A stretch of 64,000 nt of DNA from Lytechinus pictus (Eukaryota). How positions within the stretch are numbered: the first letter of the stretch is position 1; each line of letters starts with the position of its first letter. The translations under genes were made by a program, and so were the position numbers. Below, piece by piece: positions 3,497-64,000 of the stretch. The DNA lies in NCBI RefSeq assembly GCF_037042905.1, contig NC_087251.1, positions 1,240,001 through 1,304,000 on the forward strand, in the 5' to 3' direction. The notes beneath the pieces were generated by a model that did no database searches, was not told the origin of the DNA, and saw only the letters and a program-made list of their open reading frames with translations.

Positions 3497-30812
<27,316 letters not shown>

Positions 30813-38362: not shown

Positions 38363-38461
38363 ATGGCCGGGGCAGACACATCAAAGGTTCGGCTAAAGTT
38401 AGAAGAGATTGTTGTTCCTGATGAACTCGTGGAAGGAAACAAATTCCTCAAATGGGATGAG
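38363..38461 (+). CDS. PLCB: Phospholipase C-beta (PLCB1/3-like), first coding exon; gene continues beyond the window
   Basis: ATG..GAG|gtgag gives MAGADTSKVRLKLEEIVVPDELVEGNKFLKWDE (33 codons). This matches the recalled PLCB1/PLCB3 N-terminus MAGAQPGVHALQL..G(T/S)KF(V/I)KWD(D/E), which also has a phase-0 intron after codon 33. Confidence 0.85.
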
Positions 38462-38534
38462 GTGAGCTCACGTCTAGGTGTCTTGTAGTTTGTCATATAT
38501 TTTAGTTGCTTTCATTTGTGTGTATATTGAGGGG

Positions 38535-39345
38535 TTTCAATTCAATTTCAATTCAATTTATTAATAATTCATAAAATGCAAAGCAGATATTAGACAGGAA
38601 TCACTCACACAACATGCGAGGTTAGTATACTATTACTAACCTCGCACAACGCATGTCATTTCATAATGAACTTTGACGTTTTCATTGGACAGGAATAACC
38701 GTCGTTTCTGGGAATTTATTCAACAATTTCTGACATTTTACTATAATCCCCATTTACCATGTATTGGTGAGTGAGCCAACGCAGTTCAGCGGAACAACCA
38801 AAATACAGAGACTGAAGCTTTTGGTCTAAGCAGATATATACAATAAAATGTGTATGGGAATCACAACAAAAGTCTATGGCTTGCTAAACAGTGATCCCTT
38901 TACATACAAAATATACAAACAGACACAAAAAAAAACCACACACACACATAAAAAAAAATGTTTGTGTAGGTTTTGTAGAATCAATATGCAGATAAAATAA
39001 CTTTTCTATATTTAGATTTAAAAGCATATTGTGAATGTATATTTTTTATTTCAGATGTAAGAGCATTCCATAACTTAGTGCATTTAATGATGGTAGAGTT
39101 ACGCTGAGTGAGATATATACAACAATGTGGCAAGATAGCGTTATTCTTATTACGTGTATTAAATGAGTGCTTGAATTTTCTGTTAGAAAAGAAATCTTCT
39201 AAAATAGGAGGTAGTGAGCCGTTAAAATGAGAAAACATAAAGATTGCCAATTTCAGGTTAATCAAATCAGAGAGCTTTAATGTATTTAAGTTTTTGAAAA
39301 GAGAAGTAGTATGAGCAAGGTAGTGCGAGTTCTAGTTGCAAATTT
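38535..39345 (-). mobile_element. CR1/L2-group LINE 3' fragment
   Basis: ORF 38981-39265 (H.FNTRN..KLWNAL..FKSKYRK.IL) resembles an RT C-terminus; tail AATAAA(TTGAA)n on the minus strand; interrupted by 38591-38828. Confidence 0.72.
38591..38828. mobile_element. TAGA..TCTA-ended small transposon with 9-bp TSD
   Basis: AGCAGATAT direct repeats at 38582-38590 and 38829-38837. Confidence 0.72.
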
Positions 39346-39599
39346 CAGAACGTGCCCTTATGGAAAACAAAGCTCAAAGTCTTCTTGGTCTTGATGTTTT
39401 GAAATTTATGTTTTCTTCAAATTAAAGTTCAATGCTTTTCTATAAAAAAGTATACTATGACCATAACCTTGTTCATTGAATGAGTGACTATGACAAGGTT
39501 TGAAGGAGTCTGCGTTCATATTTCAATAATTGATATTGATACAAAACATAAAAATATATAAATTTAGATCAACTTATTTTAATTTAGGCCTACTACTAC

Positions 39600-40043
39600 T
39601 AGACAATTGGCAGCCGTCTGTTTTGAGTTTTTTAACATTTTTAATTTTTTTCAAATTTCTCCTCGTACACAGACGGCCCGCTATCGTGCAGCCACCATTA
39701 GGGGGTTAACAATTCAAAATCCCCCCGACGGGGCTCATCGATTTTTGTCATTATTTCATTGAAAATATATAAAAAGAACTACCAAAATAAAGATTATTAT
39801 TCCGTTTTGGCCTGAAATGCACCAAAATGGGGAAAAATAAACTTAAAAGGGGAAAAAACAGTGACTTACTTCGGCTATCGCGCAACTTCACTTCCCTGTT
39901 TTATCCAAACTTAATACATAAACATATGGCCATTGAGTCCCCTGCACAGATCGAGCTAGAACTTCGGACTCTGTATTTGGTGAGTGGAGCCAACGGAGTT
40001 CAGCGGAACAACCAACATAACAGAGACCGAAGCTTTTGATCTA
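39600..40043. mobile_element. Second TAGA..TCTA element
   Basis: Shares ~70 bp of its right end with 38591-38828; ACTACTAC(T) TSD. Confidence 0.68.
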
Positions 40044-40277
40044 ACTACTACTAGCTATATGATCTCTATTCTCTTTTACTGAATTGAATTGAATTAGATT
40101 GATCGATTGATTGATAGAGTTTGTTCTTTAGTTTCATGAATAATTATTATAGTCTAATTATACAGTGTAATAGTTAGCACTTTCCACTGAATCAGAAGTC
40201 TCTACTTACCAAGAGATCTACTGTAATTTGTAAGATACATGTTCTTGTCCCATATACATGTACATGGATGTATTTTT

Positions 40278-41153
40278 AAGAGTTTAGTTGCAAAAGGGGT
40301 TAGGTCCACTTTGGACCATTCTGAGAAAAACCATGTTTTTTATTCTCACTTATTGCAATATGCTTATGAGAAACTAAATTAGAAAGTCAAAAGGGGCCTA
40401 AGCTTTCGATCCTAGCAGAATCTTCGTCGGAGGCAAAATGAGAAACTAAATTGTCATGATGTACTACCCTATCATATGAACATAAAATTTGGTATAAAAG
40501 AAATCTACCACATTTTTTTTCTATATATTTAAAAAAATATATATCATTGTGGACCTAACCCCTTTTGCAAGTAACCTGAAATGAATCCAATCTCTTGAGA
40601 TTAAAAAAGTGATTTTTCTTTGCCACTTAAATTCACATTTGAATTTAAAATTTTCTGTGGTATCATCAGAGTGACTAAAAATTTAGAGGTTTAGAGACAG
40701 AAAACTATAAAGTTTATGAAAAATGGATCTAACCCCTTTGACATAGTTCTTCAGAAGAGTTTTGTTGCAAAAGGGGTTAGGTCCACTCCAAGAAAATCAT
40801 TTTTTTTTATTCTCCCATATTGCAATATTCTTATGCGAAACTGAATTTTCATGATACCCTTCCATGAGAACAAAATAATTGGGTATAAAAGAAATCTACC
40901 TGTCTTCATATTTATTATAATTCTTTTCAAAAAAAAATCTGTGTGGACCTAACCCCTTTTGCAACTAAACTGAAATGGACATAACCCCTTTAAAAAAAAA
41001 GTGATTTTCTTTGCCATTTTAGTTCACTTTTTAATAGGAATTTCAACTTTTCTTTGGTATCATCTTATAGAGCTTCTAAAAATCTATACATTGAGACATA
41101 AAAATAAAATTTGATGAAAATTGGACCTAACCCCTTTTGCAAGTGAGCTCTTC
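40278..41153. mobile_element. Tandem dimer of a ~400-bp GAAGAG..CTCTTC MITE
   Basis: Copies at 40278-40752 and 40754-41153; TIR and internal motif TTGCAAAAGGGGTTAGGTCC. Confidence 0.8.
40395..40434 (-). ncRNA. Minimal type-I hammerhead ribozyme-like motif (Penelope-type)
   Basis: Minus strand reads GCCU CCGACGA A GAUUCU-GCU-AGGAUC GAAA GC UU AGGC: stem I, core (U4 replaced by C), 6-bp stem II, GAAA, palindromic AAGCUU. Confidence 0.65.
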
Positions 41154-41670
41154 ATATAGTTAAAAAGTTACATTAACCTTTGTTTAATGGGGGGAGGTAG
41201 GGGTGAGTGGTATGAGTTCACAAGGAACTGTTTCCAAATTGCTTATGAAACATTTTAATCAGGATGAAAATGTAATTCGGATGAGATTACTCTCTTGTAT
41301 GTGGACGGAATGGGCTTTACAAAAATGTACATGAAGTAGACTGCATTTAAAAAAAATAAAGCCAAAATGTCTGTATGAGTATTGAGTAAGAGTTTGTGCA
41401 TCATTATCATACGTTCAATATGTTGCTGGAAATTATTTCTGTAAAACATTTTTGACATTGGATTTATCATCAGCTTTGTACAGTATATGGCCATTCATTG
41501 CAAATTACAGTGTGCATACAATGTAAAATACATGTAGGCCTACATGTGTACAAAGTGGAATATTGCATTTGGGGAATGGGTTATATTGAGAAAGAGAGAG
41601 AAAAAAAAAACAAAAAAAATTGTTATACTATCAATTTATCAAACATGACAAGAAGTGTTGGTGCTTTGTA

Positions 41671-41870
41671 GGGAGGCGCGATAGCTCAGTCGGTAGAGCG
41701 GGGGTTTCGGATTCCGGTGACCCGGGTTCGATTCCCAAGTGGTGCGCTAGTGCCCTTTGGTAAGGCATTTATCCTCATTACCAGGTCCCTCGGAGAGGAC
41801 CTTAAGCCGTTGGTCCCCTGGTTGCTTGCTCACAGGCATTCGTGCTTTCTTAGCAGTCAGGTAAAACAAC
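41671..41870 (+). mobile_element. tRNA-derived SINE, second family (Meta-domain-like core)
   Basis: A-box TAGCTCAGTCGG, B-box GGTTCGATTCCC, body GGTCCCTCGGAGAGGACCTTAAGCCG; acceptor stem not intact. Confidence 0.78.
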
Positions 41871-43052
41871 CTCGGTATAACATAACATTGACAAAGAGAC
41901 ACACTTTGACATTTGTCCTTGTCTTAATTTCACCTCAGACATAGATTATAAAAAAGAGGATTTTGGTTTTGAAATCCAGTTGGATTACAAGTTCGCCCAG
42001 TTCACTCTACATGTAGATGAATGAATTTGTGTGAGGTAGGCCTACTTTAATAAGGAGAGCGATTATTTCTTGCTCTTCAGATCATTTTGCATCTAGTTTC
42101 CCGCTTAGATCCGGTTACAATCAGTGAACATATGCACCAGGTACCAATGTAATGATGTAGAGGTGCCCATGCAGAACTAATGTCAATAGGACATAGTCAA
42201 GTCAGGCTGTAATTCGGCTTTAGGCCTACCTGACATTTCTTTCCACTAAAGTTTGTTTTTCAAAGTTGATGAAAATCAACATCATGTTGACAAAAAACAG
42301 TGTGAACTTGGCATGTTCAATGATTGTCATAGCATGATGCTTTTATACAGTGTACAAAATGTACATGTGTTGAAATGTAGACTTTATATTGTACAGTGTA
42401 CATGTACAGTACACTGCATATACATATATTTGTGTGTACATACATGCAGGACATGTATGCCTACAAGAAGCAGAGAGAACAAATTGACCTTGATGTTTTT
42501 TTTAATCATTTCTCAAACTGAATTGCGTAAAAAATATTTGTAATTGTTTAGGTTGTCAGGTGTTATGACACCATTTTAGAAAGTTCTACTACACTTTAAT
42601 GTACACTTTACTACATGTAATTGTGCGTGTAGATACATGTATGAAGAGCTGCCACTTATTTTGCTGGCTCCTCTGAGTGCTTGAAATGGCAGCTGTAGCA
42701 AAAGATTCAGTCTTTTGGTTGCAACTATGAATTCTATTACATTATTAGTATTGGTCATTTTTCAGCTGCAGGGATAGTTTCTAGGACATTCCTCGAGACA
42801 ATCATAATTTTTTAACTATACGCGCCGCTTTTCTGACGGCGGTGTCAATATTGAAATCTTAAACAAGGTTAAGACTTAAGTTTTTGAAATGTCATCATAA
42901 CTTAAAAAGTATATGGACCTAGTTCATGAAACTTGGAGTCTTGGACATAAGGGTAATCAAGTATTACTGAACAACCTGCCTGAGTTTCAGGTCACATGAC
43001 CATGGTCAAAGGTCATTTAGGGTCAATGAACTTAGACCATGTAAATTTTAGG

Positions 43053-43279
43053 GACAGTGATTTTCCGTTTTACCAGTAGAATAAAACGGAAATTCCTTTT
43101 GGTTCTTACACTTTTCATGTAAAAATTCATGGAATTCACCTTTGCAGAACGGAATTCAGGTTTTTCCTGTGTACATGTTCAGTGAAAAAACAGAATTTCC
43201 ATTTTTAGATCAAGTTGAAACGGAATTACAGATTTTCAGAAACGGAAAATACAATTTTTTGAAACGGAAAATCACTGTC
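43053..43279. mobile_element. Small MITE nested in the HINE
   Basis: Perfect 18-bp IR GACAGTGATTTTCCGTTT / AAACGGAAAATCACTGTC. Confidence 0.72.
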
Positions 43280-44030
43280 TAGCTACATGTACAGTGTACA
43301 TGTACATCATCATGTTGGGGGAATCAATATCGAAATCTTAACCAAGGTTAAGTTTTTGAAATGTTTTCATAACTTGGAAAGTATATGGACCTAGTTCATG
43401 AAAATTAGACATAAGGGTAATATTGTACATGTATCACTGAACGTCCTGCTTGAGTTTCAGGTCACATGACCAAGGTCGAAGGTCACTTATGTAGGGTCAA
43501 TGAACTTTGACCATTTTGGGGGTATTTGTGGAATTGTCATCACAAATTTAAAAGTTTATGGATCTAGTTTATGAAACAATAGACATGAGAGCAATTAAGT
43601 ATCCCTGAACATCCTGTGCAAGTTTCAGGTATCATGATCAAGGTCAAAGGTCATTTAGGGTCAACAAATTTTGATAATGTTGGGGGTATTTGTGAAATTG
43701 TCATCACAAATTTAAAAGTTAATGGATCTAGCTCATGAAACTTGGACATAAGAGTAAACCATGTATCCCTGAATATCCTCTGAACATTTCAGTTAAAGTC
43801 AATGAACTTTTGCCGTGTTGGGGCTATGTGTTGAATTGGCATCTTAACTTAGAAAGTTTATGGATCTACACATGTACATGTAGTTCATGAAACATAGACA
43901 TAAGGGTAATCAAGTATGTTTTGCACATGTATAATAGGTCACATGATCATGGTCAAAGGTCATGTTTGGTCAATGGACTTAGTGTTTTATTATCATATGA
44001 GTGTTTTCTTTTGTGAATAATTATTCAATA

Positions 44031-45685
44031 GGGCAATTCCACAGGTTGGTAGACATGAGCTTAAAAATTCAAATTCAATATTTTCTTGAATTTTTTAAAA
44101 ATACTTTAAGTCCTTCATGCATGATAGTTTCAGGAACAAAAAATAAAAGATTATTTTCGTATGTATACTTTGGAAAATAATTGTCAAAAGTTGTGTCTTC
44201 CATTCTGTACCAAAATACAAGAAAAATAGCGAAAAATGAAATATGCCTTATTACCATTTTGTTATTGCAACAACATACCACTTTATATATTTCTGAAGTT
44301 TAGAAGAGTCAAATTACCTAAAATACACAACAGCTTTTCAAGTAAATTTGTAGTAGTCATTCAAAAATGAATATTGCAACCTGCTCAGGTGATGTAACGT
44401 GAGTAACCGAAAAAAATGACTTTGTTTTCTGAGAGAAAAATTCTTCACAGTTAATTGGTGGGATTTTAAATTCTCTTCCTTCAAACAATCTTTGACACAG
44501 TGATGACTATCAAAATCATTAAAAAGTACAATTTTTTATAAAAATGATGAAGAAAAACTGTAATGTGAGTAACCTTGTAACGTGAGTAACCATCATGTAA
44601 TGTGAGTAACCAGTAAAAATCATGCAGTGAGGTAATATTTTCAGTGGGATGTCAAGTTTTAAGTCTCATGGTGAGTTGTGAAGTTATTTTTGATTAATTA
44701 AAAGCAAAATGAGGGTACACCTCTTTGATGTGACTCTTTGTTCATCAAAATATCAGTTCAGTGGTCATACAATCACACAAAAAATTGAATATTAGTAGAA
44801 GTATTCACAATGCGAGAGTGCATTAGTAAGACTTGGTTTCGATTAACCAAACTTTAAAGAGTGTTCGAACAACAAATTGAATGTCCTTACATGTACCTGT
44901 AACCCTATCTAGGCTGGGGTATTTTGGGAGTTAATATGGCCCGGGGGGGGGGGGGGGTGGGTGGGGCCTCCCAGGCCCCCCTTGAGATCTCGGCCATTGG
45001 CCGCACGATCACGCCGAAAATTTGCACGCAGGTTGTCTTGGACATAATCTACAATACTTTACAGTAATTTATTTCATGCAAATTGGTATTAAGCAATTAT
45101 GCTAATTTATGCATAATTTGTAAGCAAAATCATACTTTTCCCTCTTACTCCCTAATAAAGCTCCAATATTTCCAATTTTTTGTATAAAATCTCTTTTTGA
45201 TGTTCCTAGCAATGAATTTTACACACATTATTGAATTTTTAATGACATTTGTGTTGTTAACCATACATGGACAAAATGTAACGTGAGTAACCGTAACGTG
45301 AGTAACCATATTATCTGCACCCCAAGTAAAAACCATGTGTTCTCTATTTTTTTAATTATGTACAAAGTTTGTCTCCCTAATATACTTCTTTGAAATAGAT
45401 ATAATCAACTTTCATAAAAGCCTTGTATGAGGAGACTTTTCACTTATGTCGACTTTTCATTTTATGCATGTCCAAATCATGTAACGTGAGTAACCGACAC
45501 ATTCCAAAGATTTGCCAGGAGCATAATAAAATTTCAAAAGTTTTGTTTTTATACAAAGGATAGTCAGACTGTGTACTTTGTTGTGATAAGGAAATGTTTA
45601 GTTCCTATCAATAATAATGGAGTAACAGCTCCAAGTATGAGTCAAGGTGTCTCCAAATGTAACGTGAGTAACCGTGGAATAGCCC
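44031..45685. mobile_element. Sola-like non-autonomous transposon
   Basis: TIR GGGC(A/T)ATTCCAC; 4-bp TSD AATA; ~8 internal GTAA(C/T)GTGAGTAACC motifs. Confidence 0.8.
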
Positions 45686-46506
45686 AATAGCTGTTTTCAA
45701 AGTCAGCACTGCTGCTACATATATATCAAATCGCGTAATGCAAGCGAGACTGTCAGAGGCATTCCACTTGTTATAGTAATTAGGCCCCTATTAAATATTG
45801 TTATTTTTTATAATTGTTATTATAAATGTTATTTTTGTTAGTATAATTATTATTAAAAATGCAATAAATGAGGTTTTCAGAAGTCTTTTATGATTATGAT
45901 AACTTTAAAACTGTAATTTATGTAATTTCGTTTTAAAATATAAAAATGAAGGTAAATACATGTAAATTGACCTTTGAAAGTTAGTGAACATCCTGAATGT
46001 TTCACTTGAGTCCTCTCTTGTATGAACCATACATTGTCTTTTCTCTAATACCTATATACATGTATGTAACTTGTATCTATTGGAATGATTGTACTGTATG
46101 TACATGTAGATATAAAGCAAAGGAAAACTCAATAAATCCTTGATCATTCCATAGATTTGATGCTGTGCTAATCTAGCTATCTCATTTCCTATACTGATTA
46201 AAGATGAGCAAGGAAACCAGTGAGGATTCATTTCCGTTCTGAGAGTCGATCCTTGTTTGAGAAACTCTCCTCCATGTCGTTGTTCTCTCTGGCTCATTGA
46301 GATGAAAAGCTCGTTGATGCATTCAAATATTTGTAGACATGTACATGTACCAGGGTACTTGTCTAAACTATTACAATCTCTATGTACCTACTCCTTCAAA
46401 TATGTTTAATATTTCCACATCCAAGATCATAATGTGTTCAATACTTTTCTATGGTTCATGTACTTATGTACAAGCTTCATACACATTAAAGCTGTAAAAC
46501 ACTAAA

Positions 46507-48681
46507 GGGTGATTCCATACGTGTCGTAAGGGACATTTAGAGAACAATTGACAGTTTTTTGACAAAAAAAAACAAAAAATATTCCAGTAACTAAAGGTGA
46601 TCATCAAGTGCTACCAGAGTGTTAGAAAAACCAAGACTTAACATGACTTGAATTCACATCCTGTATAATACAGATTTAAAATAGTAATGTGTCGTACGGA
46701 CGCAGAAAAAGTGGCTTTTTTAGAAACCTCACGTTTGTACTCTAAAGTCTGTGAGTTGGACAGATAATTTTCATAGAAACTAAACTCAAATTGATATTCA
46801 ATTACCCAAGAACAAACACATCTATGAAAGAAAGCAAAATAAACATTCATGAATAAATAAAGCAAATTAAGATTTTCGAGAACATTGTGGCGTACGGGAC
46901 ACTCAAAATGTGTTGACGGGACATCTCTAAATTGAAGCCAAACTTTCTTACTTATGTCTCTTTGACTTCTTCAATCACTTTATTTGGCTGATGATAATGA
47001 TAATCCTATCAAACTAAAGACATTCATTATGTTAGAAACCGCTATTGGCTGAATATTTCTGTCAATATATCATAAACAAAATAATGTGTCGTACGGGACA
47101 CTTGTGTGTCGTACAGGACACTTCTGTGTCGTACGGGACACTTGTGTGTCGTACGGGACACTTGTGTGTTGTACAGGCACTTGCGTGTTGTACTGGGCAG
47201 CCTGAATAAAACAATGAACTTTTTATCAATCAGAAGGGGAGCATTGCCCCTAAATTCTTCCTTTTTAATGAAAAGTCTTTTAATAAGTAGTCATTAAGGA
47301 CAATATAATTAAGAAACCTCAATATATACAATCGGGAACAATATGTTATCATTTTTTTTTCATGATGGGAAATGTACCTGGGGTTCACAGCATGTTTAAG
47401 AGCTGAAAAACTTGAGGTTTTGTGTGAAGTTATATTTTAGTGAATTAATTGATGATTTCCAATACACTATTTAAACAATGAAACTGTTTGTGTAAATTAT
47501 GGGGCTAAAATGTTATGATTTTTCGTATAAAATGTATATATACATGATATATGTCACACCTGTCACTTGTAATTCCACAAAATATTTTTTTTCTAAGAAA
47601 TGCGGTTCTACTTTTTCAAACCTTTCTGCATTTCACGAAACCATATGGTTTGTCTTATTTTCCAGATTTTTTTACAACTTGAAAAAAGTAAGGAGTTTCA
47701 ATACTGTACATAAAAACAATTAGTGATCATCAAGGGAAGTCCAAATAGATGATTGATATGTAACTTTTTTTTACATCCTATAGTAATTCCACATTAGCAT
47801 GCAAGAGGAAGTCATCTTCCAGGCTAGGGTTAATCAATTATAAAGGTTTTCTTTGCATGCTCAATGACAAAGAAATTAACCTGCTCTGACTAGTGAAAAT
47901 CATCAGTTTAGCTGACGGGATTCACAAAAGAATACGCCTACATGAATTTAATTAAAATGGTTAGAATCACCTATTTCATGTTCTATGGAGATAAAAAAGG
48001 TACTTTTTCAGTTCACTTTATGTCAAATCATTTACTTGAATTAAAATAGGCCTATTTATAGTTTCTGAATCCAAATCCTGCAATTAAATGCATTATAAAT
48101 TGTGTGTCGTACGGGACATGTCCCGTATGACACACACTGTGTCGTACGGGACAACTTTTAATAGGACAATTATTGAAAAATGAAGGGCAGTAATTAGATC
48201 CTTATGGGATAAATCGATCACCCATGGGTCAAAGAAAGAGAAACTTATATAGTGAAATTGCATCATCAAAAATAAAATTGTAGGAAAAACTTTTGCATTT
48301 TCATGTGTCGTACGGGACATTGCCAAAAAAATTCGGAAAAACCAGGGCTGCCCCTATTATGGATCATGAAAATGTTGTAGATATGATTTGGAACCATCAA
48401 TGATACATTATTCCATTGACCTGCAATATTTTCAATCTTCTCGTGCTTTGCCAATAATTGTTTCAGGCAGTGTTTGTACTTGACTATTTAATTAGCAAAA
48501 TTATTGAAAATTGAAAATTCCATTGTTCCCCCCCAAAAAAACTATATCTGACTTTACTTTTGGTTAAAACTCATAATTTTCATAAAATTTAGGTATCATA
48601 GTAAAATATTACACTACTTATGACTTATTGAAAGCAAGTTGAAATTTATGATATTTTTGAAGTTCTAGTGTGGAATCGCCC
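46507..48681. mobile_element. Sola-like non-autonomous transposon
   Basis: TIR GGG(T/C)GATTCCA(T/C)AC; 4-bp TSD TAAA; internal GTGTCGTACGGGACA motifs, including a 20-bp tandem array at ~47086-47190. Confidence 0.8.
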
Positions 48682-50924
48682 TAAAATGCGCCAAAAACAA
48701 GTTATGGTGAATAAATAGGGAAAATCAACCAAGCAACGACCAACAGGGGCAATTAACCAGATTTAAAACTTTTGACGGGATTACTACCGTACTTCTACTC
48801 ATATTATTGTACAATGCCTACTTTAATAGCTTGTTGTATAGTACACAAGCAAATGGGAGGCTGTATGTAAAGCATTTTTACTGTTGCGCAAGGGTTACTT
48901 TTCAGATGACCTCACATTGAGTAATGACAAAAACATTAAACAAAATTCACTTGAAATGTTGGGCAGAACAGATACACATGATGAACATGTAGTCCCATGC
49001 ATGAATTTCTGTGTACAGACTACAGTGCATACATGTATACGGCTCACAACAAAAGAGAGTTCATTTCTGATCAGTCGGGTGATTTTGAAATCTTTTGGTA
49101 GGTTCATGGATTCAGCATTCAAAATCAGCTCCACCAACTGATCTCAAGACCAGAATGTACAGTATTTTAATGGTAAACTAAACCAACCTTTAGAACCCAA
49201 GTCTACAGTAGTATTGCTAAGACCCTTGGCTCAAACATTTTATTTTAACAAAGATGCTGTGATTTTTGTGTGTGCTCATTTTGAGTCATTTACATGTAAT
49301 GCAGATTTGAGGAATCCTGTTGGCTGACAGTAATAGTAATACTGAAGGATCACTCAATTCCAATCTGTTGGGATAAAAGGGGTACCTGAGGCTGTACATG
49401 TATGTATTATGATTTTTACAGATAAAGTAAAATCAGACAAAGTTCACTGAAAATATTCGGAATTTGATGAGGAATAACAAATTTTAATGACATTTTAGAG
49501 ATTTGCATTAGCCTACATGTATTTTCAGTGAAATAGTTCTATGAATGTCTTCGTGAATATACATTGAGTGAGCTGATGATGTCATATCCCCACTTATTAT
49601 TCTCTTTTTTTAAAAACCACTGATCACTTTCATATCATTACACTCCTAATATTTTAGCTTGTATTTACAGTTCATTCAATTAGGATCCCTAAATTAGACC
49701 CCAAAATAGCCAATCTGGAATAAAATTATTGGAAATGGTTTTTCAACTAATTTGAGTAGGTATGGGTGTCAACATTTACCAAAAAAAAGTTAGGAGGAAT
49801 ACGGGTTGGAGAAAGTGATTATTTTCAAGGTCAAAGGTCAATGACCTTTTCATATATACTGTATACCGGTAATGGTATCTCTGAGATGGAAAGGCGTAGG
49901 TTGGTGATAATGGTGTCAAAATGCACAAATTCTTTAATACCAGAATATAAAATAAAATTAATTACCTAGAATGCACATTCACCAATAAAATTTAAGGTCA
50001 AAGCCTTGCAAAGGTGAATGACCTTTTTTTTTACATTATATACCATACCATATAATGGTATCTCTGAGATGATAAGGTACAGGCTGGTGATCATGGTGTC
50101 AAAATGCACAGATTCTTACCAGAAGATCAAATGAAATAAAATTAAGTACCTAGAATGCACATTCACCCATAAAATTTAAGGCCAAAGGTCAATGACCTTT
50201 TATATATTATATACCATACTGTATAATGGTATCTCTGAGATGAAAAGGCACAGGTTGGTGATCATGGTGTCAAAATGCACAAAATGCACGGATTCTTGCG
50301 AGAAGATGAAATAAAATAAAATTAAGTACATAGAATGCACATTCACCCATAAAATTTAAGGCCAAAGGTCAATGACCTTTTTTTACATTATGTACCCTCT
50401 TATATAATTGTATCTCTAAGATAAAACGGCGCAGGTTGGAGTTCTTGGTGTCAAATACACATATACTTACAGGAAGATTAAATAAAATAAAATTAAGCAT
50501 CGAGAATGCACATTCTTCCATAAAATTCAAGGACAAAGGTCAATGTCCTTTTTAACATTTTTATTTAATAATGGTATCTCTGAGATAAAACACCGCAGGT
50601 TGGTGATCTTGGTACCAGAATGCAAAGACTTGTACAAGAAGATTAAAAAACACCACTGAAATAAGTATAAAAAATAAATTTTCACCCTTGAAATCCAAGA
50701 TCAGAGGAAATATATAATCTGTATGACATAAAAATAACAAAAAAATTATCCTTTGTGATCATATTTTATTTGTGAATAATGTAAATAAAGATGGCTAAAT
50801 TGTAATGAAAACATTGAGGTTTCATAATTTCAGTCTGAAATATTGAAGGTCATGGAGAATATATTTAGGGGTGGAGGTCAATTAAACCTTTCCAAAATAT
50901 CAGTGGACTTTAAGTAAAAAAAGT

Positions 50925-53272
50925 TAATAACCAAATAACACTTCTTCATATACTGCCATGCGTTGCCAATAGCAATGAAATGTTTTCACACCTTTCATTG
51001 TGTGTATCTCTAAAACAACAAATGATGGGAGTTTGCTTTTGATAGAGTTAATAAAGTGAACCTTGCTGTATACTCTGATACTAAGTTTTCCTATGTAACC
51101 ACATTTGTTTACGCATCAGCAAGCAAAAATGTGTCGGTAACTGACATTACGCAAAAGGACATGGAATTTCAAGGTGTTCATTAAAATTGAAATATCTCAT
51201 GTCCCTGAGTAGATAGAGTAATAATTTGAATATGTAAATATACCTCCGTTACTAGGTTAAGATGTGTCAAAATATGAAACAATTAGTTTTTGTCTTTTGG
51301 GGGTTATGATAATTTTTCCACAACCATGCTGGTAACTGACATTACACTTAATTTGCCATAGAGATAACACATGGAAGTCAAATGTGTGGAATCATTGCAT
51401 TGTATCTTCTGTGCAGGGCTTCACATGAAAGTGAGCTTGATGTGGAAGTATACCCGTGTTTCTAGGAACATTTCAATGAAAAAAACTTTTTCTTTTTCTT
51501 AATTCCTTTGATTTGAACATTTTTATCATTACTTGTCGGTAACTGACAATACACATTAACATTTACCAGTGCTATATGAATTTCAAAGGCATAATTTTCT
51601 TGGTACGTATATGTAAGGCTTTTTAAAATCATAAAAGTTTCATAATACTTCACATTTTTAATTATCAAAAGATAAGAAATGTATGTTTTACTTACTCGGG
51701 GGGGGGGGGGGGTGGGGTCATAGCAGCTACATGTTTTCCTATAGTAATTTAATATTGATTTGACTGTACACATGGATTTTTCTGACTATACACCCATAAT
51801 ATATTCATCAGTTTTATATATTGACTTTTTAAACCTTTTCCTTCTCCAACCTCCCCCTCCCCTCAAAAAAAGGCAAAATGAACAAGGGTCTCCTCCCCTA
51901 GGCTACACGTACCCCTCCCCGAATCTCATGCAGCCATGTAGTTTTATTGATTTCTATTCTGGTCAGTGCAAGCAATGCTTGTTCATATCTGTCGGATTTC
52001 AATTCTCTTCATAATTTGTTTAATCATTTTCTTTGCTAATTTCTTTTTTAAGCTGTCCAGCTTCTAAACTGAAACTTAACTAGTTGTAAATTAGAAGAAA
52101 AAAAAACAGTTTTAGTAGATCCATGCAACATTGATCAGAACTGTCAAATTTTACTTTTCATCTATGCTTGTAAACCAAAAACAAAATTGTATCACACATC
52201 CACACTACTAACATGTATAAAAACCAGGAATTTACTTTTAGCGAGGCAATGCTCAAAAGAATCCTAGAAACTAAAAAAGGGACCCTGGAAATCCCCTTCA
52301 TCACAATGTTAAGCTTAAAAAACGTTGCAGATTTAGGCAATAGGTTGGGAAAATTACCCCCTACCCCCCCCCCCCCCGAAAACCAAACAAAAAATTGTCT
52401 GATACAAACAATTAGGTACTTGGTAAGTGCATGTACAAAACAATTTTATAGTAATTTTTTTTTGCACGATGGGAATGCAACTTCCTTCATAATTTCATAT
52501 AGTATTCCTTGTGAACTATACCTTTTTAAAGTCAATAGCAAGCTCCTTCTGGTGTGACTTGAAGTGAAAGACTTAAATAACAAAGTATACAATATTTCTT
52601 CACCATAAAATTGACCACATATTTGCATTTCAATATTGGTAACCAACGTTTATCATAGTAACTGACATTACATCTCGGTAACTGACATTACATTTTCCAC
52701 TTGGTAACTGACATTACATATATTTAATGGTACCCTATGGCTTCATTGTTAATTGGTAATCTTTAATTTTGGTGTAGAAGGGAGGGGTGTTACCAAGAGA
52801 AGAAATCTACCAAGTTTCATATAATATATCCTCTTTTCCAGGAAATGAGAAAAAAAAAGTTCATGTTTTCAGTAACTGACATTACATACCATATCACATA
52901 CTTCATCAATGTTTTTTTATCAGATGAATGAATTACTGGTGTTTCTTTCTGTGGGATTTTAAAAAGTGTTATAATAGCAAGCTAAATCACAGGCGAAAAC
53001 ATCATGATCAAACCTGTTCTTTAAAAATCTGTCAAAACAAAATATGTATCAATATACTATTTTCAACACTAATTTGTATCCATACTTTGGCAGCCATTTT
53101 GAAATAAAAAATGGCTGCCATAGTCGGAAAAAAAATTTGTCTCAGAAACTTCAGGTCTTGTTTTATTAAAAAACATAAAGCATTTGACATGAATATCAAC
53201 TTGATTTTTTGCCTCTGTGTCCATCTGTGGTGAAAATGCCCTTTTTCTCTCCAGGGATAGACCACTCACCTC
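50925..53272. mobile_element. Left-truncated Sola-like element
   Basis: ~7 GTAACTGACA(T/A)TAC motifs; candidate right end ..ccactcacCTC|AATT; left TIR not found. Confidence 0.55.
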
Positions 53273-54592
53273 AATTCTATAATAAATACTATAAACTATT
53301 AGCTTAATCTTCTGAAAATGGATAGGATAGGTATAACTCTCATGTCACAGCTAGCATCATCTGAGAGCATTTCCAAACAGCAGAGGGATGATGATGAAGA
53401 TGAAATGAAGGCCATCATTAGAGCTGCAGCTTCTGTCATACATGTAGTAAATGGCATCATATGTATATCAACTTCAACAAAGATGAATTCCTGTATCACT
53501 ATTATTTACCTTTCATTGCGAGCTGCCAGAATCTCTTGAGATGCTAATGCAGGATATCTGCTCTCTGCCATACGTCACCCATGATGCTATTTCTACTAGG
53601 TATCGGTTTGTACAAGGATCATCTATTTGGTCCAGAACAACTGATTGTTATCATGCACAAATTAGGCATATAATAATGAAATTCAAAAGGAGATAATAGC
53701 TTACAAGTACTCATCCATCGCCCTAACATAACTCCTACAGCACCACTTCCAGTTCTTGAGAATCAAGCTGTGCAACATATCAGTAATAATATACATGTAG
53801 ATCCTGATCTGATATCCCTTCATTGAATGGGCCAGATCAGAGTCTTGAAAATGTCAGAAGGTTTTCAAGAGTTTAATTACTCTTTGCTGAAGTTGAGACA
53901 CTTCATTTACTATGACAAAAGCTGCAGCTCTAATGATTGCCTTACTTTAATTCTTAATCATTGTCCCTGGCTATATAAAAATGTTCTCGGATTATGCTTG
54001 CCATAAGAATTAGGCCTATCCTTTCCATTTACAAATTAAGTGATAGTATTGATTGAGCATTTGAGGATAGTGACCTATTGCTACAGAGGAATTGTTACCT
54101 TGATTTATAACATGCATAAATAAATGCTGCTACTTTAGACAACTTCACCATTTCAAATTATATTATACATGATTTTTTTCACACTTTTGGCAATGCATTA
54201 CTACAATATATATTAAAAAGTGCTATTTGATCTCAATTTCATCTCGAACTTGTATTTTGACATGATCATTGGTCAAGGATTCAACTATCAAATATGTGTT
54301 CCTTTTCCACGCAGGTCAGTCTTTTTCCCATCAGAATCACTATACCTACATGCCACAATCACGTTATATCGACCTACATGTATTTACTTAAATTCCCTGG
54401 CGTTATTGACACAGTTGATTGACCTCTAACCCCTAAATATATTTTTCATGGCCATTTTCTAACCTTTTTTCAGAGTAAAATTATCAAACATTCAAGTTTT
54501 CATTACAAATAGCTATCTTTCTTTATATTATTCACAAATAAAATGTGAATATAATGGATTAATTTCTTTTTTGGGGAATCATGAATAGATAT

Positions 54593-57178
54593 GAGCATGA
54601 TCGGTTAAGGGTTAGCATTGAGGTGAAAAAAAATTTTAAAGGTATTTCTATCAAAATTGCTTTTAAATTAATCTTTGATATCTCAGGTTTCAAAGAACTT
54701 AGTTTCATGAAGATTGATGATTCCGAAAGTACTGGAATAGTCCATTTTATTCATGGGGGTGCTGTTACCTCTCATCACGGACGGACATTTTTACTCAAAT
54801 TAAATTCACTCTAGTTTTGTTGTTTTTAAAGTTACTCTAATTTGGTTTGGACGTTCTTGCACTCTGAACATTAATCTATTATCAAACATAAATTAGTAGG
54901 AAAAAAATATTGGGAACTAATTTTTTTTGGTAGGTGTTAACATTTCCATTTTGAAATTTCCGTCCGTGATGAAAAAAAAGATGAAAAGTTCTTTTATTCT
55001 TTATCAGAATAGAAATAAAAAATAAAAAGGTGTAGAGGTATCTCACTAAACACTGTACATCATTTTATTTGAACTTAGCTGAAATCCATACATTTTATCC
55101 ATATCATAAACTCAATCCAAAATGATCATGGACGGACATTAATTTCATCACGGACGGACAAAGTAAATTTACTCAAATTCAATTCACTCTAGTTTTGTTG
55201 TTTTCAAAGTTACTCCAATTTGGTTTGGATTTTCTTGCACTCTTAACATTAATCTATTATCAAACATAAATTGGTAGAAAAAAAATATAGGAAGTAAATT
55301 TTTCTGGTAGATGTGTCCGTGATGAAATTAATGTCCGTCCGTGATCAGTTTTTGATATGGATAATATGTATGGATTCAGCTTTTTATTCTTTATCAAAAT
55401 AGAAACAAACATAAAAGTGTGTAGAAGTATTTCACTAGACACTGTACATCATTTTATTTGAACATACATGTAGCTAAAATCCATACATTTTACGCATATC
55501 ATAAATCAATAAGAAATGATCACGGATGGACAAGTGAGCAATATACGCAAATACTGCTAATACTGTGGAATGATCCATGCAAATGGGAAACTTTGCTGAG
55601 CAGATTATGAATTTAACTTTAGTTTCAATTTGCAGTGAAAAATGTCACTGAGAATTATTCAGAACTCAAATGGATGGAAACCTACAACTCTTTCACAATT
55701 CTTTTGTGGTATCTTTGTTTGGATGTTATTGGGGCTAAATTGTTGTCAGGAAAAATTGTTAAACATAATTGGAATGCAGATAGAGTTGGAAAGGTACATG
55801 TGTGTCAAAAAAGCAGGAAATAAAATATGGCAAGAACAAGTCCAAAGCTGTAGATTTAATCTATTCAAGCTTGCAGAAAGTGATGGAAAAGAAGAAAGTA
55901 GAATGCATAATCTGATAAGTAGAAAAATCTTCAATTTTTCCATGTACAAACCTATGGATTCACAATGCTTCTAACAGAACATGACATCACGGTCATGAGG
56001 CTTGTGAAAAGGACAAGAATACCTTTTTTCGAAGTCCATTTTGGAGCTAATTTTAAGTAAATTACTTATCTGGTAAACTGTTAAAATGCATACTATTTTA
56101 AAGCTTGCACTGCAGTGTTTAGAAGCATAATAAGCTTTTGATTGGTAAATGAATTATCAATTTCAATTTTGGATTCGGTCAGAGCCTAAATACATGAGGG
56201 CTGTTGATGTTATGGGGTGTCTCCACTGTAATATGGACAAAAGATGAATTTGAAGAGAGCCTCTGACAAGTGTTGTGGTCATACTTGATCCACCAAACAA
56301 GCATAAGGATCAGCAACCTTTGAATCTTTTGGATTTAGTTAATGAACCTAAAAACATATTTGCTCTTGGAAAATTAATGCCTAAAAATGTATTAACATGT
56401 ATCATCATGATATATCATAAAAATAGTTGTATTAATATGATCATTGATCAACTAGATGTTGATTTGGTACCTACTAGCATTTTATACTTTGAAAAGAAGA
56501 CAATATGCATTAGGACATTCTTTACATTTGATTTTGACAAGAGCTGTGTTGAAAGCAATCATATGTCTAGATTATACTGTGCGTCTAGCATAGAAATCAA
56601 GTTGCTACAACTTAAATCAAGTTGTAGCAACTTGATTGTGCAACTAATACTGTTTAATCATATTAAAAAATGTACAAATCATCAATAAAATAGCCTTTAT
56701 TCCCCCAAAAAAGTAATAAGAACTTCTTACAAGGTACTTCCAATGTATTTTAATTGTGTCCGTCCGTGATGTCCGTCCGAGATGTCCGTCCGTGATGGAA
56801 AATATTTGCAATTCTCTCAGAAGTTTGATATTGGTTAAGAATTCAATATGCTGAACATAGAAGCTAACATACCTGAGTGTTAGTTGCATTAACAATTATT
56901 GGTCAATGTTAAGCTGTTTAGATAGAAACAATAAAAATGTACAAAAATTCTGAAAACCACATTTCTATCATGTCCGTCCGTGATATGGCACATTTACTGG
57001 ATATCTATGTTTGTAGGTAACCATGGCAACAAACTTTTTTTTATCATTCAGCATACTTTGTCCTACCCTTCTCTATAAAACACAAAGGAACCTTGTTCAT
57101 CTTATTCCTAATTTGTTACAAGCCTTCAAAATTTCCTAAATCTATCAAATGTCCGTCCGTGATGAACCGATCACGCTC
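54593..57178. mobile_element. Sola-like non-autonomous transposon
   Basis: 14-bp TIR GAGC(A/G)TGATCGGTT; ATAT TSD; internal GTCCGTCCGTGAT motifs; ~375-bp internal tandem duplication at ~54774-55530. Confidence 0.82.
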
Positions 57179-57583
57179 ATATATAAATATTTATTAACTT
57201 TTGACCTGCGACTTTGGATATCAAAGGTGAAGGATTATTCTTTATGATTATTTTGTGCCTTTTTATCTTCTTGCAAAAATTGCTTTTTGACACTGAAATG
57301 ACCAACATGCAGCGTTTTATCTCAGAGATACCATTATAAGATATATAGCCTATGTATAAAAAGGTCATTGACCTTTGACCTTGAACTTTATGGATTAATA
57401 TGCATTCTAGGTGATTAACCTTATCTTATTTGACCTTCCTGTAAGAAACTGTGCATTTTGACACAACGATCAACCTGTGCCGTTTCATCTAACAGAATTA
57501 GAGATATATTATGAAGTATGATACATAATGTAAAAAAGGTCATTGACCTTTGAAAGGCTTTTTACTTTGAATGTTATTTTTAA

Positions 57584-58168
57584 AGGACAAGTCCACCCCA
57601 ACAAAAGTTTGTTTGAATTAAAAGAGAAAAATCAAACAAGCATAACAAAGAAAATTTCATCAAAATCGGATGTAAAATTAGAAAGTTATGACATTTTAAA
57701 ATTTTGCTTAATTTCACAAAACAGTTATATGCACATCCTGGTCAGTATGCAAATGAGGAGACTGATGACGTCATCCGCTCACTATTTCTTTTGTATTTTA
57801 TTATATGAAATATTCTAATTTGCTCCTCGGTGTCAAGTGAAATACGATTAATTTCTCCCTGAAGATGTGGAATTAGCATTGTTTAATAATATATGGTTCA
57901 GTCAAGGTGGTCCTTATTGTCAAATCTGTAAAAAATGACATATTGTAGAATTCAAACAATAAAAAACAAAAGAAATAGTGAGTGAAGGACATCGACTGCC
58001 TCATTTGCATATCACTGAATTGTGCATCACTGTTTTGTGAAAAATAAGCGAAACTTTAAATTGTCATAACTTTCTTATTTCACATCCAATTTTGATGAAA
58101 TTTTTAGCGTTATGCTCATTTGATTTTTCTCTATTCAAATCAACAGTTTTCTGGGGTGGACTTGACCT
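57584..58168. mobile_element. Kolobok-like MITE, family B
   Basis: TTAA|AGG(A/T)CAAGTCCACCCCA TIR; TTAA TSD. Confidence 0.88.
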
Positions 58169-59804
58169 TTAATGTGCATTCTGGGTACTTAATTTTATTT
58201 TATTTGATCATCCTGTAAGAACCTCTGCATTTTGACACCAAGATCACCAACCTGCACCTTTTCATCTCAGAGATACCATTATACCATATATATGATATAT
58301 AATGTAAAAAGGTCATTGAGCTTTCAAAGGCTTTGACCTCGAATTTCATTGTGAATGAGCATTGTAGGTACTTGATTTGATTTCATTTGATCTTCTGGTA
58401 AGAATCTCTGCATTTTGACACCAAGATCACCAACCTGCGCCTTTTCATCTCAGAGATACCATTATACTGTATATGGTGTATAATGTAAAAAAAAAAGGTC
58501 ATTGACCTTTGAAAGGCTTTGACCTTGAATTTCATGGGCGAATGAGCATCGTAGGTACTTGATTTGATTTCATTTGATCTTCTTGTAAGAATCTCTGCAT
58601 TTTGACACCAAAATCACCAACCTGTATTATTTTATCTGGGAGATACCATGATACAGTATATTTTAAAAGGTCATTGACCTTTGACCTTAAAAAAAAAACT
58701 TTCCCAATGCGTATTACTCCTAACTTTTTTTGGTAAATGTTGACACCCATACATGTACCTACTCAAATCAGTCAAAAAACCATTTCCAATAATTTTATTC
58801 CAGATGGTTACTAATTATGGGATACTAAATGTGAGAAAAAGAACTTCAAATTAATTGTATACATGTACATGTACACACATTGCATGAATCTTGGAAAAAA
58901 TTGAAATAATTTTGTTTTATAATGTTCAATGAACTTTATCAAATATCAATCCGTATTGCATATATAGAAATGTAATATAAAACAAAACCGCTTGTCATGT
59001 ATCAGGGTGCATGCATATTGAAAAACATTGTACAATAAAATTGAAATATGACAGTGAAATTCCCAAAGATTGAAGACCAGCCAAACTGGGATATTTTGTC
59101 AGCAATAAAGTTCCTTTACCTTTAGTTGATTTGTGTTGGACTCTTAACTGAGATGAGATTGCCTGACAAATTGATGTTCTAAATTATAGAAATGAAGTAC
59201 AAACAACCAATCTCATCAAATTGCAATGGCCCAAAACAAATATAAATCATATTTTCAATTTTTCATTGCTGCACATTATGAATTTTACAGCAGGAGCTCA
59301 TTTTTAAAATGTTGACAGTATGATTCGTTTTTTAAATTTAAGGTTAAAAAATGTATGTTTGATCTAATGATATTGATACTACAAAATTGTTCTGTATCGA
59401 GAATTAATATTTCTCTTACTAACAATTTATTCTTGATTAGTTTAATTTTTTTTCAACTCTGATGAATTCACCGATATTACATGTATGTAAAATGTAATGT
59501 CTCATTTGCACATGGTATTCTTGCCAAAATACATGAGTATGATGTTTTGTTTAAATAAAAGAAAAATAACACTCACATGGAATAAAACATTTAAATCTTG
59601 GTGATTTATTTTTGGAATCCTCTTGACTCATTATAATCCATATCACTAAAAGGATTTTTCTCAACTCTTCTGAAAATTTGTCCCCCTTTTCTGCAATTTG
59701 GATTTTTTAATTGTTATCCCTAACCAGATTTAAAATAATTCTTTCTCACTGAGGTGACGAACCCCTGGGATGATATATGATTTACTGTACAAGTACATTA
59801 TGAT

Positions 59805-59945
59805 TATAATAATGATGATGATGATGATAATGACAATGATAACAATAATAATGATAATGATGATAGTGATAATAATAATGTTAAAATATTAATAATAATG
59901 ATAATAATAATAATAATTATGACAATAACGATAATTACATATAAT
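59805..59945. repeat. (ATA/ATG)n trinucleotide repeat
   Basis: Directly visible; similar tracts at 8433-8570 and 13944-14010. Confidence 0.9.
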
Positions 59946-61599
59946 AGTATTTGTATGGCGCGGTATCTAATTTCCATTTTTAATACTACAGATGCTTCAG
60001 AGCAAATCAAAGAAAGAAAAGTAAAAAAACTTTACAAATGAATACATAATTTACATGTATTGTAAGCCTATATTTTCTCACTTGTCTGTCAAAAAGCAAT
60101 TGTCATCATGTTTTCCTTGTAGGACATGATGATTCATGATTGTTATCACAACTTTACTTTGAGGTATTCAGAGGCTAAGAGATTACTTCACATCTTATCA
60201 AACTCATTTTTTTTAGCAACTTGAACATGGTTCTTTGATACATTTGACCAAGATGTATTGAACTGACGGCAGTCATGTAACTACAATGAATGTTATGAAC
60301 ATTTTTTTGATGTGCAACAAGTTATTAATTTATTGGGGGCCGTAATTGGAGAACACTTCCATGTAGTTTTACAGTGGTAAAAACTGAAAGGAAAATATTT
60401 CTTTTGGTAAAAATTCATAGAATGCTTTCATGTAATTAACTATTATTGTACTGTGTGAGCAGATTATTCATTTGATGTCAGGTCGGCAAATCATTTGTAT
60501 GATTACACTTAGTGCCCTAACAGCAAGCGACACTAATGCATTGTACATATATAGGAATATTTGTTATGCATCTGGGCAGTCTCACCAGATCGTTATCACG
60601 ATACTGCAAGAAATATGAATATGTGTGTGCTATTTTGTAATGAGAAGGATACCAATACCACACTGTATAGCCGTGAATGTATTCTATCAATGCTTTACAA
60701 GGTGAAACAAGAGTGCTATCTCTACCTCTCACTACACATTCACATCCTGCCTCTCGTATTATGTTACCATGACGATAGTAAGGCTGTCCACTCTGGTCTT
60801 TGTGAGGCTGTGTGTTACAGTGTCAAAGCTTAAAGCGTTTGCTTGTACATGTGTGAATTATGCTTATTAACTTTATAATTTGGAATCTAAACCCTTTCTC
60901 GGATTTATTTGATGCATTCTCATACAAACCGGTACATTATATAGGCAGTACAGTTTGATAGCTATTGAAACCATCAGTTAATCAGTAGCATGTCTTCTAC
61001 TGTTTTAGTGTTCAGATGTTATTTCTACCATGTTGGCCCTATTTGTAACATTTTCATAAACATGTACCACATGCCATTTGCCACTACTTGAAGAATGAAT
61101 TGAGGCCTTGTTGAAAGGCTACATGTAGTATTATTATTCTAGACACTCCTGTTTTAGCATAATGTGTTATGTCAAGTTATGTGGAGAGAGAAATTCATAA
61201 TACATTCAATATAACTCTTTTATTACAAAAATGTGTGATGAAAATGGATTTACAATGTACACTTTGTACAGTATTTTTGTCTGATACACTGCTACTCATC
61301 CAGATATGAATGCACAATTTTCTATTGTAGTGTAGGCCAACAGGGTAGCTCATTACATTGTAAGCCTAAATTGTGAATACTACATACACATACATGTACA
61401 GGTCTAGCTGTATCAGGCCTGCCTCATTCACTCAAATTATTGTACTGTGACAGGTTGATTTATTCATTGATTAACAAGTAAAGTTTAAGTTTTCCCAGAA
61501 GGATCACAAAGTATTCTACAATGTTGACCTGCATAGATCTTCCCTAAAGCGTTGTATGCAATAGGCTGTATCCTGTTCTAGGCCTACTGAGTCAGTTAA

Positions 61600-62194
61600 A
61601 GGGGAATCCAGCCTGGGCCATAAAATGTTGTGTTGGGAAGGAGAAAAATAAATTAAACAGAATGGTGAAAGTTTAAAAGAAATCGGACAAGCAATAAGAA
61701 AGTTATAGCTGCTTTAAAATTGAGATCACTAATAGTATGTACATTTCAAATTGGCAACTGTGTAAGTAAATTATGACAAGGGGCAAGGACAATTTTCCCA
61801 TAGGCCATGTACTTTATTATCAGGGATTTGTGGTTTTCTCCAAAGTATCCATTCCCCTGGGGCAGTAATCTAAATATAACCCAGGTAGTATATTGTTTAA
61901 TGTCCTCATATAAGAAAAATACAATTTGAAGTAAAACTTTTGGGAAAAATTACATCTTAGCCATAATATGTATTGGAGTACATGGAAGAGTAGTCCTTAC
62001 CTTACATCACTATGACATCCCATATGCGGCCAATTTGAAGTCTCCATGAGTATAGTGATTACGAATATTTACAACTTTTGAAAATTCATAACTTTCTTGT
62101 TGTTTGTCCAATATTGTTCAAACTTTCACCTATCAACTTGTCTGATTTTTCTTTTTCTTATAAAAAACAAGTTTTATTTGGGTTGGATTCCCCT
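61600..62194. mobile_element. Kolobok-like MITE, family C
   Basis: TTAA|AGGGGAATCCA...TGGATTCCCCT|TTAA. Confidence 0.88.
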
Positions 62195-62884
62195 TTAAAT
62201 TTGAATATCTGTAAGGGCTTAAAGTCATAACCTCCTTTGATAGACCACTGTGCCCTTCACATTGGCCTGGATGTTTCTTGTATCTTTAAAAAATATTTCC
62301 CATAAATGTGACGAAAAATATACATGTGCCCCATAGGAAAGTGGGCTTGCCCGGGGGGGGGGGGGGGGGGGGGGGTCAAATATATTGCTGTACACATGCG
62401 TGACCAAAAAATGGGTTCAAAGGGGTGTTTTTTCAGTTTTGGACGAGGGCCGAGCGTGCACTCGTTTAGGGTATTAAAAACACTGATTTTCAAGAAAAAG
62501 GGTGGTTTTAAAGATTCAAGATTGTTTTATTGGTCCATGAATGCTAAGCATCCAGATTAATTTAGTTTCCAATGGCTTTAAACACATAACAAACACACAA
62601 AAATGCAAAATAAAATATATCATAGCAATCTAACTCTACATAAACAATACAACTTAGTGATAACTTTTCTGCAATAGGTTGATAACCCTTAGAATTCATA
62701 ATTCGAAATTCATAAATTATAAGAAATAGGTGATGAGATGTCTGCATGCTGCTAACTCCTCCCCCCCATCCTAGTATGCGGTATATAATCATCATAAATT
62801 GACACTTACAAAACACCCGTTCAAAAGAGAGTGATAGATATGTAGGAAAATATGAAAGGGAGCTGGAGGGAAAGGTAAAGTGTA

Positions 62885-63082: not shown

Positions 63083-64000
63083 TTACTTTTGAGTTATACA
63101 CATGTATAGAATTAGGAATAAAGGAGTACCGGTAGCGTGAGAGGCGTGTGCGGGGGGACACAGCCGTATTCCTGAACAATTAAAACGGAAGCAATCATTG
63201 AGGAGGTGGGTCTTGTCTGCCATAATGATTATGGTATGTACTTTGGCAAGTATGCGTTCTTCGTAAATTGCTTGGACAGGGGACAAATCCATGCCTATCG
63301 TCCTTTGTGCAATTCGTCGAATCCGGTCTATTCTTTGTTTTGCTCGTTTGACATATTTCCGAAAGTACATACCAGGTTAAAAGTTATTACACTTTTGATG
63401 ATTGATTGATAGAACAGTTTCAGTATAGTTTTATCGATGTGAAAACTTCTAAGTTTTCGCAAGAAAAACATCCTTTGATTTGTTTTCTTTTGTACTGATA
63501 GACAATTTTGCTTCCATGAGAGCTTGTCATCAATGATTGTTCCGAGGTATTTGTACTCATGTACCTGCTCAATGACATCTCCCTGAATACGGAGTGGTTC
63601 ATGAATTTTATCACCCTTCCGAAAATCAATGATAATTTCTTTGATTTTACTGGTATTCAATATCAGGTAATGATCGTCACACCAACTGACAAAATCATTT
63701 ATCTGTGAGATATATTCATTAGGATCATTGAACAGGTAGCCTGTTATCACGGTATCGTCTTCATACTTGATTACACTGCAGGATGTCTTCGTACCTATGT
63801 TCAAGTTCAAGTGTACAACGAGAAAATAACGGGAGATAATACGCAACCTTGGGGGGCTCCAATTTGCCTCACCACCTCTCGTGACTGACAATACCCAGCT
63901 TTAACTGATTGAATTCTCGAGCAAAGGAAATTTTGGATACATAGAATTGGCCGGGGTTTACATTCATATCTATCAACATTTGTACAAGGCAATGAGGTGC
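63083..64000 (-). mobile_element. Degenerate non-LTR retrotransposon reverse transcriptase (Rex1/Babar-like)
   Basis: GAPQGCVLSP..FSLYT, KYEDDT (YADD-like), SWC..L.LN.SK.KE..IDFRK, YKYLG and QRMFFLRKLRSF are spread over three overlapping ORFs (frameshifts). Confidence 0.88.

Follow-up and report, generated by a model that had tools for sequence, protein, structure and literature searches.

The stretch analysed here (hereafter the window), 64,000 nucleotides of Lytechinus pictus DNA (contig NC_087251.1, positions 1,240,001 to 1,304,000), contains 41 copies of the palindromic word TACATGTA, in which the core CATG stands between two TA dinucleotides. These words are probably excision footprints of Tc1/mariner-type transposons that became fixed in the germline. 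Every in-window relative of a site that could be compared lacks the word, and most copies lie in a long intron of a PLC-beta gene. The original prediction had described roughly 30 copies, mostly after 40 kb; 30 of the 41 are indeed located at 40255-61398, and the 11 earlier copies had been missed.

The word is far too frequent for the composition of the window, which has a G+C content of 34%. Dinucleotide shuffles gave a mean of 2.05 copies and a maximum of 6, and none of the 100 shuffles reached 41. Markov models of order 2 and 3 predict 3.4-5.1 copies. TACATGTA ranks first among the palindromic 8-mers and also among the non-homopolymer 8-mers. Of the 16 palindromes of the form TA-NN-N'N'-TA, only TACATGTA, TAGGCCTA (7 observed, 0.47 expected), TACCGGTA (4 observed, 0.18 expected) and the TA microsatellite are enriched. 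The variant TACANTGTA, with 12 copies against 2.13 expected, bears out the recurrence of variants that had been noticed earlier. One-mismatch neighbours of TACATGTA number 82 against 62-63 expected; because this excess of about 20 is small, most copies are still perfect and thus either young or conserved. The contigs of run X17 agree with the window without any difference at 6 of the 14 sites in 41400-46500, which excludes an assembly artefact at those six sites. X17 may be the source individual, and the agreement is a check on the letters, not on independence.

For each of the 41 sites, we looked within the window for a paralog that matches both flanks, with a threshold of 50 against a maximum of 31 in the shuffled null. 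Six sites have such a paralog. All six paralogs lack TACATGTA and score better when the word is collapsed to TA, with shortfalls of 6, 6, 6, 6, 12 and 14 nt, and at none of the six is the word common to both copies. The four paralog pairs cited in the original prediction are all real. The copy at 58750-58757 is 6 nt longer than its paralog, which has a plain TA at 49761-49762; that at 53439-53446 is 6 nt longer than an inverted (minus-strand) paralog near 53911; and that at 55465-55472 is 6 nt longer than a paralog at 55076, with one adjacent substitution. Each of these three comparisons involves two copies and is unpolarised. The fourth concerns the stacked insert TA-CACATG-TA-CATG-TA at 43867-43882, a gain of 14 nt, which is a polarised insertion: a plain TA is found in four of the five aligned repeat copies, including the one at 42920, and loose ends in contigs of run X10 agree with an insertion at 43867. 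The mixed stack TA-GCC-TA-CATG-TA at 49509-49521, which holds two different cores, is likewise polarised, being 12 nt longer than three other spanning repeat copies (a fifth copy is gapped here, and the 12 nt include one extra homopolymer base). The multi-copy polarity at 43867 and 49509 indicates that the word was born by insertion at TA, and not that an ancestral consensus carried it and some copies then lost it by deletion.

Comparison with family contigs extends the polarity to two further places. An insert of 6 nt at 43422-43433, relative to a high-copy family consensus, coincides with loose ends at 43421 in all four runs (50, 66, 2 and 14 contigs). A block at 43043-43317, in which an inverted-repeat element of 227 bp (43053-43279) precedes the stack TACATGTA-CAGTG-TACATGTA (43284-43304), is absent from other family copies. 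Contig joints bypass 273-275 nt at this block in three runs, and it is derived because the family contigs skip it. Polarised insertions were also observed for words with other cores, namely one TAGGCTA and one TACCGGTA at 49864-49871, which adds 6 nt at a TA relative to other satellite copies and represents a second type of putative scar with the core CCGG. According to the accessible text of PMC6943129, Tc1/mariner excision leaves the terminal 2-4 nt of the element between TA copies after end-joining. The net gains fit this rule (6 nt at single sites, 14 and 12 nt in stacks), and the added bases sit between two TA copies at five of the six paralog-tested sites, with 43426 ambiguous. Three of six features of a Tc1/mariner footprint were thus found: a TA-flanked insert, a derived longer allele and a net gain.

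Many of the words are stacked. At 11 of the 41 sites, a TA of the word also belongs to a second TA-core-TA unit, compared with 1.7-3% of background TA sites, for a list of cores picked after the data were seen. Mixed stacks are located at 41529, 42392, 43284 and 49509. In TACATGTA-GGCC-TACATG (41529-41548), which has no paralog and is presumed to be inserted, the CATG and GGCC cores share a TA, and the letters of TA-CAGTG-TA-CATG-TA-CAG-TA (42392-42411) are confirmed by an X17 contig. The tandem TACATGTACATGTA at 58860-58873 may reflect either re-insertion or slippage. Co-location with TACATGTA is significant for TACANTGTA (4 of 12, p = 0.002) and not significant singly for TAGGCCTA (p = 0.39), TAGGCTA (p = 0.22) or TACCGGTA (p = 1.0). 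The stacking, together with the 23 of 82 flanks that read TG| or |CA (8% in the background), suggests that scarred sites were re-targeted.

The words are unevenly distributed along the window. The first coding exon of PLC-beta, on the plus strand at 38363-38461, has 33 codons with a GT donor after them and matches residues 1-33 of a cephalopod PLC-beta (PDB 3qr0/3qr1) with an E-value of 0.0022 in phmmer, which backs the earlier assignment of the motif-rich region to a PLC-beta intron. This intron (38462-64000, plus strand) is open at the window end, and no further PLC exon was recognisable by eye among its open reading frames (ORFs), with no alignment search made. It occupies 40% of the window and holds 30 of the 41 copies (p = 1.6e-5), 27 of the 37 clusters (p = 4.7e-5) and all seven copies of TAGGCCTA. 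The comparison region is the HEATR5B gene (3498-30812, plus strand), which starts upstream of the window but lies mostly within it, with 30 exons matched between 3498 and 30809, the first at about residue 114; among proteins 278-2000 residues in length, its best match comes from a sea cucumber and the next from amphioxus, in keeping with an echinoderm. The remaining 11 copies of TACATGTA lie in 1-30812, and none falls in the 6105 bp of HEATR5B coding matches.

In the PLC-beta intron, we masked those elements whose limits are marked by inverted repeats, by target duplications or by a tRNA head. Outside them, the intron has 29 copies in 19205 bp (1.51 per kb), and the non-coding, non-element DNA of HEATR5B has 0.51 per kb, a ratio of about three (p = 0.001). 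A broader mask gives 1.92 per kb in the intron; we relied on the strict one because two boundaries of the broader mask were placed by eye. At 1.5-1.9 per kb against 0.51 (p = 0.001 or lower), the PLC-beta intron is a patch about three to four times denser than the introns of the neighbouring gene, and the concentration noticed in the original prediction stands. The delimited elements of the intron contain a single copy in 6334 bp (p = 0.002 against the remainder of the intron). Because these younger elements are almost free of it, the density fits an accumulation over time. Two of them are non-coding DNA transposons with related GGG..CCC termini; both carry numerous short repeats in their subterminal parts and are flanked by AT-rich duplications of 4 bp. 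One (44031-45685, AATA duplication) has empty-site joints in three runs and about 97% identity to family contigs, and holds one TACATGTA in 1.65 kb; the other (46507-48681, TAAA duplication) holds none in 2.2 kb. By their features, both may be Sola-like.

The original prediction had gone further and proposed that footprint density might record germline-accessible chromatin near a promoter; as worded, the link to a promoter finds no support. TACATGTA is absent from the 6953 bp of non-element DNA that separate the PLC-beta exon from the HEATR5B stop, part of which may be 3′ untranslated region, from the 1.7 kb with which the intron begins (38462-40200), and from the CpG-rich 36-40 kb, whose composition suggests that it is likely the promoter. 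The density at 58600-61500, 20-23 kb downstream, is as high as that at 40201-46500 (2.41 and 2.38 per kb, respectively). A 5′ gradient is only suggestive in both genes (Kolmogorov-Smirnov p = 0.07 and 0.065), the density does not track the observed-to-expected CpG ratio (Spearman 0.23, p = 0.21), and the clusters in the intron are not packed significantly more closely than random TA sites would be (p = 0.10). The patch tracks the gene body and not the promoter, and the PLC-beta locus alone gives no pointer to function.

Tc1-family ends begin with CA. A CA..TG-ended element would first insert at a TA and duplicate it. If excision then cut two bases inside each end, as in Tc1/mariner chemistry, end-joining that retained both remnants would yield TA-CA-TG-TA and leave the site 6 nt longer. 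In the same way, elements ending in GG or CC would leave TA-GG-CC-TA or TA-CC-GG-TA, respectively, and joins that are uneven would produce TA-CA-N-TG-TA or TA-GGC-TA. The words are inserted into older repeats, are mostly perfect and are nearly missing from recognisable younger transposons, which argues that scars accumulate with time in non-coding DNA. The same TA sites carry several cores (CATG, CANTG, GGCC/GGC and CCGG), as would be expected of repeated hits by more than one family, and the scarred sites or regions may therefore be preferred targets. The scars themselves are probably neutral. One predicted type of donor is present, because the window holds two TA-flanked elements with GGTG..CACC ends. 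The first (344-1149) has a 25-nt inverted repeat, although a reading with an AT duplication also fits, and contains a tandem TACCGGTA at 669-682; the second (28343-29972) has a short inverted repeat. Both are candidates for the kind of donor that could produce TAGGCCTA.

Several observations weigh against an origin by excision. No TA-flanked CA..TG-ended element was found in the window in a search up to 6 kb, which returned only internal foldbacks and chance pairs, and the CA..TG donor is therefore only postulated. The uniformity of the scars would require a very dominant repair outcome. Moreover, the original prediction called the word the classic footprint of such elements, which is too strong: the accessible text of PMC3520976 names taCATGta as a Tc1 footprint in Caenorhabditis elegans, citing Eide and Anderson 1988, but describes it as rare, and it also considers and dismisses a footprint origin for the same word in Phytophthora. 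The 7-nt words of the Sleeping Beauty type, TACAGTA and TACTGTA, are barely enriched (19 against 13.6 expected). Only 6 of the 41 sites could be tested by paralogs, and three of these are the two-copy pairs without polarity. At 43426 the added letters are ambiguous, since they can be read as ATTGTA with one substitution or as a scar with a change in the flank. Substitutions, and no indel, separate the TAGGCCTA at 54011 from its paralog, and TAGGCCTA is therefore less securely a scar. One X5 contig at 44888 is shorter by 3 nt rather than 6. Among the contigs of four runs on 41400-46500, which are dominated by repeats, no 6-nt indel appears in the 12 indel rows listed out of 29, and neither a complete element at any site nor a polymorphism between TA and TACATGTA was seen. 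Across two sites, an X1 contig that covers 46020-46281 lacks 10 nt relative to the window, but its gaps are unplaced and it was not used as evidence. The Tc1/mariner attribution of the original prediction thus stands as far as size and letters are concerned, and falls short at the donor.

The missing donor and the uniformity would also be explained if the core were added at TA without a full cycle of insertion and excision, by abortive transposase cleavage or by a break-repair route that adds a palindromic core and a TA. This would likewise account for the polarised 6-nt inserts and for the fact that the three enriched cores are perfect palindromes. However, the flanks hold no template for the core, the cores CATG, CANTG, GGC and CCGG resemble different element ends, and TA-flanked GG..CC elements are present in the window. 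We know of no pathway that adds a fixed palindromic core at TA without full transposition, and we consider this explanation unlikely. Replication slippage of CATGTA-like units in AT-rich DNA has in its favour the tandem copies at 1605-1618 and 58860-58873, and the flanks reading TG| or |CA at 23 of 82 positions compared with 8% in the background. Nevertheless, CATGTA or TACATG is absent from all seven empty-allele contexts, and only the TA is duplicated; slippage therefore did not seed the paralog-tested sites, in agreement with the original prediction, and as their origin it is ruled out. The mixed-core stacks are not tandem copies, and at 30 of the 41 sites the word has no TA in common with a further unit. 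Some arrays may nevertheless have been lengthened by slippage, which is a possible contributor to the pure tandem ones; as a general account of the words it is highly improbable.

Selection for transcription-factor sites of the Irx or Myb type in a regulatory first intron would fit the enrichment in that intron and the scarcity of decayed copies; the accessible parts of the literature give TACATGTA as a preferred site of Irx homeodomains and as bound by a Myb protein in Phytophthora. Yet the words arise as single insertions in decayed repeats, none is common to both paralogs at the six testable sites, and none lies in the CpG-rich promoter-like region. Selection could retain, but not create, an insertion that duplicates TA, and it is very unlikely to be the explanation. 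A purely compositional effect, in which CpG deamination produces CATG, could draw on the CpG-poor state of the region (observed-to-expected ratio about 0.2-0.6), but higher-order Markov models predict no more than 3.6-5.1 copies, the density does not follow the CpG ratio, and deamination leaves the length unchanged whereas the alleles differ in length. The same length differences between paralogs, together with the letters confirmed by X17 at six sites, rule out assembly error, and we give these two readings almost no credence. Excision by Tc1/mariner-type elements therefore remains the reading that we favour.

The window contains various other repeats. Five inverted-repeat elements of about 590 bp, flanked by TTAA and with AGG..CCT ends, are located at 12168-12759, 27424-28016, 35463-36059, 57580-58171 and 61596-62198; the first two are 94% alike and in opposite orientation, and the group is presumably Kolobok-like. 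A hAT-like element (2019-2295) has CAGTGG ends and a perfect 8-bp duplication, and a Harbinger-like element (4480-4890) has a TTA duplication, the right copy of which abuts a TACATGTA at 4892. A 2.6-kb TA-flanked element (54592-57179) has TGAG..CTCA ends, many ACGGACGGAC repeats and internal duplications. At 41672-41880 there is a high-copy short interspersed element (SINE) with a tRNA head, where ARAGORN predicts a tRNA-Arg(TCG) at 41676-41747; because the summed depth exceeds 100,000 in two runs, this call represents a repeat. A satellite of 170-185 bp forms short arrays in opposite orientations (49700-50700, 57210-57560 and 58170-58830), and a high-copy unit of about 165 bp at 42845-43990 is related to it. 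Decayed nested inverted repeats at 50736-54572, which pair 50736-50918 with 54383-54572 and 53313-53489 with 53875-54033, are perhaps an old foldback element. Apparent C-terminal fragments of long interspersed element (LINE) reverse transcriptases lie at 5246-5707 (plus strand), 38981-39331 (minus) and 63328-63900 (minus); Pfam gave ALKBH8_N and a weak RVT_1 for the one at 63328 and a weak zf-RVT for that at 5246, and the one at 38981 was recognised by eye only. A HEATR5B intron contains a perfect 39-bp minisatellite at 16890-17126.

Departed transposons are normally invisible. If the words are footprints, counting an 8-mer would map and date past germline transposition, and the scars would reveal a directional insertion process that has added about 1% of the old intron letters here (about 1.5-2 scars per kb, at 6 nt each). 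Where motif enrichment is studied in such genomes, TACATGTA, TAGGCCTA and TACCGGTA may be scars and not regulatory elements. A more speculative proposal, which we regard as doubtful, is that several unrelated TA-targeting families (CA-, GG- and CC-ended) re-use the same sites in certain transcribed introns and add 5-8 nt per visit, leaving a datable genome-wide record of transposase access to germline DNA; the Phytophthora motif would possibly have the same origin. If such re-use by several families is true, the scars would account for a large share of short insertions and of the lengthening of introns, and would keep supplying preformed binding sites of the Irx/Myb type.

Among the matches listed in the literature covered, which includes few subscription papers and no supplements, we found no account of mass TACATGTA scars in echinoderms; the accessible parts of PMC2872659, PMC1636448 and PMC520745 hold nothing bearing on the word. 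New from the window are the stacking of mixed cores, the word TAGGCCTA, the age contrast with younger elements and the negative promoter result. The closest known system is the Tc1 footprint of C. elegans, which has the same letters, a TA duplicated around CA and TG, and the same net gain of 6 nt. In contrast to its rarity there, as described in the accessible text of PMC3520976, the word is fixed and stacked here and reaches 1.5-2 copies per kb in the old DNA of the intron. The Sleeping Beauty footprints TACAGTA and TACTGTA also place the terminal bases of the element between two TA copies, but they retain 3 nt with a net gain of 5 nt (PMC6943129, in its accessible part), whereas here 2 nt per end would be retained. 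In Phytophthora, the same abundant palindrome, known as motif-1 or AM-20 and sometimes tandem-like, is read as a promoter element bound by PsMyb37 in the portions available of PMC3520976 and PMC11134190. In the window, by contrast, the promoter-like region is free of TACATGTA, and paralogs show that the word was inserted at TA.

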